DNA of 49,256 nucleotides from an uncultured Candidatus Peribacteria bacterium (GTDB lineage Bacteria > Patescibacteriota > Gracilibacteria > Peribacterales > Peribacteraceae): the NCBI GenBank assembly GCA_964448615.1, contig CAYUWH010000001.1, positions 54,146 through 103,401 on the forward strand. The letters run 5' to 3'. Both the position numbers and the translations under genes were made by a program. The notes below the pieces were generated by a model that was not told the origin of the DNA, did not search any database, and worked only from the letters and a program-made list of their open reading frames with translations. How positions within the stretch are numbered: the first letter of the stretch is position 1; every line of letters starts with the position of its first letter. Below, piece by piece: positions 11,251-45,398 of the stretch.

Positions 11251-11330
11251 TTGTAAAACGCTAATTGGCGACGTTTTTCAATTTCTTACGGATTAATTGA
11301 CAAAAACACCGAAATTGGTACTATTTACTT

Positions 11331-11470
11331 GGTCTGCGCGTATCCCTTCCGTCTTCGGGTGGAAGCGGTTACCCGTTCATCGGGGAAAACAAGAAGTACT
11401 GCAGACTTTGAACCACGGGCTCTCGCCTCTACAACCTAGCCGCGAGGGCCCGCTTCATACTGCAATTTTT
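11331..11470 (+). ncRNA. candidate small structured RNA of unknown class
   Basis: A promoter is present: TTGACA (11297-11302), N16, TACTAT (11319-11324). The closing stem is GGUCUGC/GCAGACU (11331-37 with 11401-07). An 8-bp stem with a UUCG tetraloop lies at 11346-11365, and an 11-bp stem at 11416-26 with 11442-52. A U-run follows at 11466-70. The only ORF here starts at the TTG of the -35 box. Confidence 0.3.
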
Positions 11471-11495
11471 CCACCCTGATCCGGCCCATTCTCGA

Positions 11496-12085
11496 CCCTC
11501 ATCCGCCGCGCCGAGCGCGGCACCTTCTCCCGTGAGCGGGAGAAGGAGGAAGAGTTGTTATTTTTAAGATCATAGCTCCATGCAGCCAAATAAGGTGATA
11601 TGATGATCTGCTATGTTTCACACACCCTCTCGGCGCTCTAGTCAGAGAGAAGAAAAAATTGTGTATGCAAAAAGACTGCGGCGGCGCGCAACTCCTGCGG
11701 AGGAGTTTCTGTGGAAAGCCATCAGAGCAAGGAAATGCAGTGGAATTAAATTCCGAAGACAAGTCCCTTTTGGTCCATATATCGTTGATTTCTGCGCATT
11801 AGATCTGCGTCTGATTATTGAAATTGATGGAGAAATTCATCATAACCAACAAGAGGCAGATGCAGCGCGACAAACTCTACTGGAAGAACGGGGTTTCCGT
11901 GTTCTACGCTTCAGCAATACACAAGTGTTCTTTGAACTTCAAAGTACTTTAGAAGTAATAAGCACAGTTGCAGAACAGCAACTTCTCCTTCTCCCGCTCA
12001 CGGGAGAAGGTGGCTCCGCAGAGCCGGATGAGGGTGGAAGGGCATAATGAGAAAATGCCCCGCTCGGCGGGGCGGATGAGGGCGG
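11496..12085. mobile_element. DUF559 endonuclease cassette bounded by ~55-bp inverted repeats
   Basis: The left end is 11496-11551 (CCCTCATCCGCCGCGCCGAGCGCGGCACCTTCTCCCGTGAGCGGGAGAAGGAGGAAG). The right end is its near-exact reverse complement at 11982-12037. An additional solo end module lies at 12057-12085. Confidence 0.65.
11613..12047 (+). CDS. DUF559 (Vsr-like endonuclease fold) protein
   Basis: It reads AKRLRRRATPAEEFLWKAIRARK..GIKFRRQVPFGPYIVDFCA....LIIEIDGEIH...D..R...L...GFRVLRFSN..V, matching the DUF559 signature. The C-terminal tail LLPLTGEGGSAEPDEGG is read from the terminal repeat. Confidence 0.85.
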   Translation: MFHTPSRRSSQREEKIVYAKRLRRRATPAEEFLWKAIRARKCSGIKFRRQVPFGPYIVDFCALDLRLIIEIDGEIHHNQQEADAARQTLLEERGFRVLRFSNTQVFFELQSTLEVISTVAEQQLLLLPLTGEGGSAEPDEGGRA

Positions 12086-12101
12086 AGAAAGTGAGCGCTC
12101 A

Positions 12102-24968: not shown

Positions 24969-25165
24969 CCCTCATCCACCGCTCTTTGCGGCACCTTCTC
25001 CCATACCCCTCATCCCCAACCCTTCTCCCTGGGGGAGAAGGGAGCACTATTATGAGAATTATAAGGTTTGGGAAAGCATTTCATTCAACAAGACGATACT
25101 GCTTATTGACGTCACCTTCTCCCGAAAACGGGAGAAGGTCCCGCCGCAGCGGGGGATGAGGGCGG
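24969..25165. mobile_element. gene-less (MITE-like) derivative of the DUF559 cassette, copy 2
   Basis: It shares the end modules CCCTCATCC...CACCTTCTCCC and CACCTTCTCCCGAAAACGGGAGAAGGTCCCGCCGCAGCGGGGGATGAGGGCGG. The core is homologous to 45241-45383. Confidence 0.7.
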
Positions 25166-45240: not shown

Positions 45241-45383
45241 CCCCTCATCCCCAGCCCTTCCCCCTAAGGGGGAAGGGGGCACTACCGTCAGAGTTGTAAG
45301 ATCTTGGCAAATATTTCATTCAACGAGACGATGACGTTTATTCAAGTCACCTTCTCCCTAAGGGAGAAGGTCGGGATGAGGGG
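45241..45383. mobile_element. gene-less (MITE-like) derivative of the DUF559 cassette, copy 3
   Basis: It is homologous along its length to the core of 24969-25165. It fills the dnaE-nrdR intergenic gap. Confidence 0.7.
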
Positions 45384-45398
45384 AAATAGTGGAATATT

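Follow-up and report, generated by a model that had tools for sequence, protein, structure and literature searches.

Between positions 11,496 and 12,085 of a 49,256-nucleotide (nt) stretch of the genome of an uncultured Candidatus Peribacteria bacterium (contig CAYUWH010000001.1; this whole stretch is hereafter the window), a small gene for a nuclease of the DUF559 family lies between inverted copies of a hairpin-forming module. The locus raises the question whether gene and modules form a unit and, if they do, how such a unit spreads. The initial annotation took it for an autonomous member of a mobile element family with terminal inverted repeats of its own. The DUF559 gene and its inverted hairpin modules are confirmed here as a genuine feature of the window, the coordinates first given for all its elements being right to within a few bases, and the association of gene and module is general among relatives of the nuclease in many phyla. 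Judged by sequence, the cassette ends are variants of the widespread intrastrand triplex motif known as BoxC/PIT/TMECO, and not terminal repeats specific to an element. The chances seem to us about even that the locus is a compact selfish cassette, in which nuclease and repeat are partners much as in the REP/RAYT systems and spread by way of host repair.

The nuclease gene and its inverted modules

The open reading frame (ORF) (11613–12047, plus strand) codes for a Vsr-fold, YcjD-like nuclease of 144 amino acids (aa). Each module pairs a pyrimidine run with a purine run in a hairpin, after which comes a purine tail, the mirror image of the hairpin's purine arm. On the plus strand, the left end module (11496–11546) starts with the complementary tail CCCTCATCC (11496–11504), continues with a mini-hairpin (GCCGCGC-cga-GCGCGGC, 11505–11521), and ends with the pyrimidine/purine hairpin CCTTCTCCCG-tgag-CGGGAGAAGG (11523–11546). 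The right end module (11987–12037, inverted, given on the same strand) has the large hairpin at 11987–12010, a mini-hairpin (GGCTC-cgca-GAGCC) at 12012–12025, and the tail GGATGAGGG at 12026–12034, followed by TGG. A 26-nt core, CACCTTCTCCCGTGAGCGGGAGAAGG, is present in two exact, mutually inverted copies (0 matches in 100 shuffles), and the 9-nt tail (CCCTCATCC on the left, GGATGAGGG on the right) is likewise identical between the ends. The initial description of near-perfect inverted ends of ~55 bp is thus too strong, as it holds for core and tail only; the mini-hairpin between them differs in sequence and length and keeps only its pairing. Each end does fold into hairpins far better than shuffled sequence (−24.8 kcal/mol for the left end, z −5.9), and the C-terminus of the protein is indeed translated from the repeat, the final ~20 codons of the ORF lying within the right module.

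A composition-based detector finds exactly six pyrimidine-run/purine-run hairpins in the 49 kb, and these make up three inverted pairs: the cassette and two elements that lack the gene, at 24969–25165 (element A) and 45241–45385 (element B). Element A contains a truncated extra left module (24969–25003), a tail'-hairpin (25007–25042), a spacer of ~70 nt, and a hairpin/mini-hairpin/tail (25115–25162). Element B, which occupies the intergenic space between dnaE and nrdR, has a tail'-hairpin (45242–45281), a spacer of ~68 nt, and a hairpin-tail (45350–45382). A solo partial module, also announced by the initial annotation, lies on the plus strand just past the cassette (12057–12085); it has no large hairpin and consists of the mini-hairpin GCCCCGC-tcg-GCGGGGC and the tail GGATGAGGG. 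In the alignment of these eight full or partial modules, CCCTCATCC is invariant. The stem of the mini-hairpin differs from copy to copy with its pairing kept (CCGCGC/GCGCGG, GGCTC/GAGCC, CCCCGC/GCGGGG, CCCGC/GCGGG, CCGC/GCGG), and some copies have no mini-hairpin.

Further pieces lie next to the cassette. The solo module is 85% complementary to 11489–11529, and its mini-hairpin is nearer to that of the left end than the mini-hairpin of the cassette's own right end is. On the other side, directly after the terminator of a small-RNA-like region, there is a relic of a module tail (CCACCCTGATCCGGC, 11471–11485, plus strand) that is 94% complementary to 12023–12039, i.e., of the type that would partner, in inverted orientation, the right end of the cassette. 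Since the solo module resembles the left-end type and the relic the right-end type, what remains of two pairs is interleaved at the site. On the minus strand, the mini-hairpin of the solo module followed by ATTTTCTCAT (12057–12082) fits a terminator pattern, which sits 29 nt past the stop codon of the prepilin-peptidase gene.

The protein matches Pfam DUF559 (PF04480) with E = 3e-35, its residues 17–119, the conserved core, aligning with profile positions 5–107 of 109. It scores 70 bits with the NCBIfam YcjD equivalog model, whose cut-off is 218 bits, and therefore belongs to the same family without being an equivalog of E. coli YcjD. Residues D59, E70, D72, G73, and H76, which are the catalytic residues of Vsr-type enzymes, are invariant in 23 sequences including this one. 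Even its closest relatives, which are spread over many phyla, share only about 50% identity with it. The DUF559 family, of which YcjD is a member, is large (at least 7,800 among the matches listed), and it has a solved structure with no assigned role: the family profile matches PDB 3HRL, an uncharacterised Neisseria "endonuclease-like protein", with E = 8e-40. It also matches PDB 3R3P ("mobile intron protein"), the catalytic domain of the group I intron homing endonuclease I-Bth0305I, with E = 1.6e-4, and through this match the window protein has the fold of a homing endonuclease. A published classification puts Vsr, DUF559, and the homing enzyme I-Bth0305I in one cluster. In the model search, the window protein matched only DUF559 and MTES_1575 nuclease models, and no HUH/Y1 transposase. 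Defence-system models gave no significant match (best PADLOC E = 0.008, with no qualifying stretch).

The association of gene and module extends well beyond the window. An alignment of nine sequences was used to find 80 genome loci coding for relatives, these being the best matches to the query; they come from Proteobacteria, Chloroflexota, Planctomycetota, Elusimicrobia, Nitrospirae, Desulfobacterota, Peregrinibacteria, and others. A hairpin lies within 200 nt of the gene core upstream in 65 of the 80 loci and downstream in 72, where the count may be inflated because the C-terminus of the query is itself encoded by a module, which leaves the upstream count unaffected. Both sides have one in 58 loci and at least one side in 79, against a background in the far flanks of 0.12 hairpins per kb (63 in 515 kb). 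The initial annotation had made its case depend on such ends being found around DUF559 genes elsewhere, and depending on the count, 58 to 79 of the 80 loci have them. The usual order is hairpin-tail, gene, tail'-hairpin (43/80 loci), and the polarity of the window (tail'-hairpin, gene, hairpin-tail) is that of a minority (5/80). Within the 58 two-sided cassettes, the hairpin centres are identical in 33%, compared with 1.2% in random pairings; hence each cassette has ends that are genuinely inverted copies of one another. The hairpin-to-hairpin length has a median of 448 bp. Many homologues also carry C-terminal peptides encoded by a module (e.g., PSPL..GEG, PHPDPLPQAGEGE), and 80 pairs of neighbouring hairpins separated by less than 250 nt occur in the fetched loci. 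Gene between inverted copies of a dispersed repeat, with inverted doublets of that repeat alongside, is the arrangement typical of REP/RAYT systems. Both components were known, and the link between them appears to be new: in the searchable literature, outside which subscription literature falls, we found no paper tying DUF559 or ycjD to BoxC/PIT/TMECO repeats.

Modules as members of a known repeat family

Repeats of the BoxC/PIT/TMECO family, first recognised in E. coli in the 1990s, are present in many bacteria. Named BoxC, later PIT, and later TMECO, the repeat follows the pattern CCCTCNCCC N3-6 GGGNGAGGG N3 GGGNGAGGG (Holder et al. 2015, PMC4666352). E. coli K-12 has 23 copies, including five as inverted pairs, and 262 proteobacterial genomes have 3,610 copies in all (PMC4666352). 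The formation of an intrastrand purine-motif triplex was observed in vitro, for the E. coli sequence only, and TMECO loci were found to be unusually rearranged between E. coli strains (PMC4666352). The same work cites PIT elements in E. coli as having neither promoter nor terminator activity; its authors never found linked transposases or integrases, and they mention no endonucleases, ycjD, or Vsr (PMC4666352). Another study treats the motif as a switch between G-quadruplex and hairpin, also without mention of a linked gene (PMC5100583).

The six full hairpins of the window have the expected pyrimidine 9-mer, loop of 3–6 nt, and purine 9-mer, with arms CCTTCTCCC or CCTTCCCCC, and next to them stands another purine block, the mirror of the first purine arm (GGGAGAAGG with GGATGAGGG). 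The literal published pattern is absent from the window modules, where the arm CCTTCTCCC goes with the tail GGATGAGGG. The second loop is 12–17 nt long with a mini-hairpin of its own in the cassette ends, and has the canonical 3 nt only in the right end of element B. Among 228 modules from the fetched loci, whose counts are phylogenetically non-independent, 125 have asymmetric arms; the tail fits better as a mirror of the purine arm in 85 and as a direct copy in 16, with 24 ties (e.g., GGGGGAAGG with GGATGGGGG, besides GGGAGAAGG with GGATGAGGG). A tail that mirrors the arm is, on sequence grounds, the geometry expected of a triplex fold. The ends are not the private terminal repeats that the initial annotation saw in them and belong to a family already described (PMC4666352). 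No Rfam family matched the cassette ends or their region at gathering or permissive thresholds.

The two shorter elements without the gene do exist in the window, as was initially stated, and have only end modules in common with the cassette. Their spacers are ~80% identical to each other and their ends are heterotypic, and the similarity of these spacers to the cassette interior is matched or exceeded in score by 69 of 500 shuffles. The idea that A and B arose from the cassette by deletion is rejected, as the interiors are alike between A and B and unlike the cassette; the two are copies of a single short element whose only common ground with the cassette is the modules. A metagenome scan with the conserved core of these elements gave 17 matches, all unrelated and due to chance. 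Relatives with NrdR do not have dnaE upstream, so that synteny is broken, and in the small sample that their contigs provide (17.8 kb in total) there are no such hairpins.

E. coli offers the other view of the association. YcjD ends in ..SPSP* within a degenerate hairpin. In K-12 (NC_000913.3, 1351000–1351410, minus strand), a partial duplicate of the 3′ end of ycjD (~45 nt) lies ~70 nt past the stop codon, and after it comes a full TMECO, ~250 nt downstream of the ycjD stop; upstream of ycjD there is no module and only an unrelated 16-nt inverted repeat. The gene is present in 3378 of 5426 complete E. coli genomes, as a single copy at one locus. A chimeric query of ycjD and TMECO was used to rank the genomes, and 60 records were taken evenly down the ranking. 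The 41 full ycjD-positive records have 7–19 matching places each (median 12, the ycjD match itself counted), and 18 ycjD-negative records have 1–10; 617 E. coli genomes have no match. On plasmids of this genome collection, there are five ycjD and 62 TMECO matches.

For each strain named next, we use the phylogroup to which we take it to belong. Published counts give 19–30 TMECO copies in K-12, BL21, HS, ATCC 8739, IAI1, E24377A, W, 55989, and APEC O78, 11 in O157:H7, and 1–2 in CFT073, UTI89, IHE3034, S88, APEC O1, and JJ1886. Between fabI and sapF, ycjD alternates with the eefRABCD efflux operon, ycjD being found in phylogroups A, B1, and C and eefRABCD in its place in B2 and ST11 (PMC12817139). 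These data hint at a dependence of module abundance on ycjD in E. coli. Filled and empty alleles can be compared in the hrpB-mrcB spacer, where MG1655 has an inverted TMECO pair, N5D43 a single tail-less hairpin, and AR_0017 nothing (loci L107, L108, and L109). AR_0017 is ycjD-negative and has a single partial TMECO-like match. The allele of N5D43 is apparently a deletion between the two palindromic hairpins. Filled and empty alleles further differ in about 12 nt on each flank, with no sign of a target duplication.

Mobility and its possible agents

Evidence that the gene and its ends form a discrete unit, as initially proposed, comes from three relatives whose neighbouring peptidase is 59–68% identical. 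The genes stand in the same order in them (CTP-transferase-like, small ORF, peptidase A24, NUDIX-like, SmpB, RecR), and the interval that holds the cassette measures 240–337 nt there vs 900 nt in the window; no DUF559 gene is called in it. In the relative whose DNA was compared (L101), the peptidase stop codon directly adjoins the terminator of the conserved small-RNA-like region, and no such hairpin occurs in the locus. The extra block of the window corresponds to 11469–12101 (~633 nt), and it is absent as a whole from the syntenic Peribacteria-like loci. In other phyla, unrelated flanks surround genes whose proteins are up to 97% identical. Common to loci L031 and L067 are 437 bp at 90% DNA identity, from outer hairpin edge to outer hairpin edge, with dissimilar flanks; L035 and L067 share 424 bp and L065 and L079 share 405 bp, in both cases ending at hairpin edges and with dissimilar flanks; and L030 and L078 share a block of 511 bp at 71% identity, again with unrelated flanks. 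Units of hairpin, gene, and hairpin of ~405–510 bp, with 71%–90% DNA identity, therefore recur as discrete cassettes, and similarity stops at or near their outer hairpin edges. A chromosome of Dehalococcoidia (OZ220748.1; locus L058, 1540–4500) has three DUF559 cassettes in tandem, their ends heterotypic; the first is frameshifted, and an insertion-sequence-like ORF separates the second from the third. These cassettes are surrounded by hairpin arrays with 20-nt spacers.

If the locus is a selfish cassette, it would have been inserted between the terminator of the small-RNA-like region and the 3′ end of the prepilin-peptidase gene. The nuclease would recognise a module, folded or as a duplex, and nick or cut at it or beside it. 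Recombinational repair by the host, or template switching, would then copy modules to new sites from another module-bearing locus as donor, and where the donor is a pair that bears the gene, the gene would be copied along with the modules. Pairs with the gene would be "autonomous", and solo modules and pairs without it would depend on the nuclease as REP and REPIN depend on RAYT. Equivalently, a dispersed repeat would be the substrate of a homing-like process. Classical transposition is unlikely, as a nuclease domain of ~110 aa has no known strand-transfer (joining) activity. Carriage by plasmids or phages as the vehicle was rejected, the DUF559 gene being rare on both (47 of 72,556 plasmid records and 3 of 50,697 phage records) and mostly on megaplasmids.

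Both the action of the nuclease on the modules and the copying by repair are inferences, and several observations weigh against this reading. No target-site duplication is seen at the borders of the window cassette, in the 58 cassettes, or between the filled and empty alleles of E. coli, and there is no defined target. Many loci are orthologous across genera (e.g., Pseudomonas, Alcanivorax, Desulfobacterales, and the acnD-prpF site of distant Proteobacteria), and in several lineages the gene is single-copy where its site is fixed (E. coli, Pseudomonas, Alcanivorax, acnD-prpF). Such fixed single-copy sites place the system nearer the REP/RAYT arrangement than an active insertion sequence. The relatives of the window are only 59–68% identical in the neighbouring protein, so that the block may have been lost there rather than gained in the window. 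As modules are alike everywhere, boundaries at their edges are equally expected if the modules are pre-existing targets or homology arms. The gene-less pairs of the window do not derive from this cassette; the downstream count among the 80 loci may be inflated, as said above; and the trend of copy number in E. coli is confounded by phylogeny, O157:H7 lacking ycjD yet having about 10 copies. The initial picture of an autonomous and non-autonomous mobile family is thus supported in part. The intergenic space between acnD and prpF is occupied by the cassette in many Gamma- and Betaproteobacteria. In one locus, a Pfam check places the cassette between an AcnD-type aconitase and prpF of the methylcitrate operon (L064, 3935–4400), and by flank similarity only the same site is found in L003, L023, L033, L038, L044, L059, L062, L069, and L072.

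The main rival is a free-standing homing endonuclease gene that parasitises pre-existing module pairs. The modules would be its target and its homology arms, spreading or persisting for other reasons, and repair of cut empty pairs would copy the gene only. The profile link to I-Bth0305I fits this well, as do the exact filling of the space between modules by the gene, the gene-less inverted pairs in the window and in E. coli, the occupation of the acnD-prpF site in distant Proteobacteria, and similarity that runs up to module edges, as suits homology arms. It leaves unexplained why module abundance tracks ycjD in E. coli and why modules as well as gene are absent from the syntenic relatives of the window; moreover, the gene-less pairs are heterotypic with a conserved spacer of their own, and modules occur in both polarities relative to the gene. 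On balance we find it unlikely.

A nuclease with a host function, namely solitary Vsr-like mismatch repair or a processing of hairpins or triplexes that protects replication, would make the modules incidental, or else terminators or regulators. The sole in vivo data that we found on a DUF559 protein point this way: Caulobacter VsrA, which has a DUF559 domain, gives a methylation-dependent SOS response and has been proposed to act in very-short-patch repair (PMC12907096). The single-copy, position-fixed, and conserved ycjD of E. coli and the terminator-like solo module would also suit it. The window gene has RecR, SmpB, NUDIX, peptidase A24, CTP_transf_like, and RNase J around it and no C5-cytosine methyltransferase, though such linkage is not obligatory for a Vsr-type enzyme, VsrA being unlinked. 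PIT elements lack promoter and terminator activity in E. coli (PMC4666352), and a host function gives no reason for the gene to be flanked on either side, in most phyla, by loop-matched inverted copies, nor does it account for tandem and pseudogenised copies and for cassettes in unrelated flanks. We regard it as improbable. That the DUF559 gene is passive cargo, with an unrelated role such as defence or addiction, captured and shuffled with other intervening DNA by recombination-prone modules, fits the rearrangement of TMECO loci among E. coli strains (PMC4666352) and the pair collapsed to one hairpin in N5D43, and is nonetheless very improbable given the near-universal tie to one gene family (79/80 loci), the tight cassette size, the lack of a significant defence-model match, and the rarity on plasmids and phages. 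Both of these last explanations account poorly for a framing that is near-universal, matched, and two-sided.

Next to the cassette, the region at 11297–11468 (plus strand) has a sigma70-like promoter (TTGACA-16-TACTAT with a preceding TG), then ~150 nt that end in a hairpin and a T-run. Its place between the NUDIX-like gene and the peptidase is kept in relatives, two of which (L101 and L102) show compensatory pairs (e.g., GTCTGC/GCAGAC vs ATCTGG/CCAGAT). It matches no Rfam family at either threshold and is a candidate for a small RNA without a name.

Comparison with known systems

The origin, function, and spread of BoxC/PIT/TMECO repeats are unexplained so far, and the DUF559 nuclease is a candidate for the agent that spreads them. 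The link gives both partners a testable function in a model organism, E. coli K-12, and, if true, it could explain the genomic instability reported at TMECO sites. A bolder version is possible but rather doubtful: that there is a minimal class of autonomous mobile elements of ~0.4–0.6 kb, below the size of IS200, whose only protein is a Vsr-fold nuclease recognising hairpin- and triplex-capable ends, and that this class has seeded BoxC/PIT/TMECO across phyla, including the roughly 20–30 copies of K-12 through YcjD. The window repeats share with the published ones the 9-nt pyrimidine arm, the short loop, the purine arm, the second loop, and the purine block mirroring the first, as well as their intergenic position, single or as inverted pairs. 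They differ in that the arm and tail of the window copies depart from the published pattern and that the second loop is mostly enlarged into a mini-hairpin. The published repeats have no reported mobility gene, whereas those of the window frame a nuclease gene.

I-Bth0305I, with its detectably homologous catalytic domain, sets the precedent for this fold driving the spread of a gene by repair. It is encoded by a group I intron and has an additional DNA-binding domain, whereas the DUF559 protein is free-standing, single-domain, intergenic, and framed by repeats. Vsr and VsrA have the same fold, and VsrA, a DUF559 domain protein, damages DNA in vivo (PMC12907096); in contrast with Vsr, the window gene has no linked cytosine methyltransferase, and framing by repeats is foreign to the Vsr paradigm. 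IS200/IS605 elements and miniature inverted-repeat transposable elements are also very small, have hairpin-forming ends, and have short gene-less relatives. However, the cassette has neither a Y1 nor a DDE transposase and no target-site duplication, and the short elements are not internal deletions.

The closest parallel is with REP/REPIN and RAYT. In both systems, a small gene is framed by inverted copies of a hairpin repeat scattered through the genome, often as inverted doublets with a spacer, and the gene may be single-copy and vertically inherited when the repeats are numerous, as is E. coli ycjD. The differences concern the protein, RAYT being an HUH/Y1 single-strand transposase and the window protein a Vsr-fold nuclease of the PD-(D/E)XK type with no known joining activity; the repeat, REP having a GTAG-type motif and the module a mirror-repeat tail; and the gene, that of DUF559 being itself multi-copy and tandem in some phyla. 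DUF559 and the repeats were each known before, and their link adds a nuclease-associated variety of dispersed repeat system. If the mechanism proposed here is true, repeat proliferation by a nuclease alone, dependent on repair, would stand beside the REP/RAYT system and its HUH transposase.

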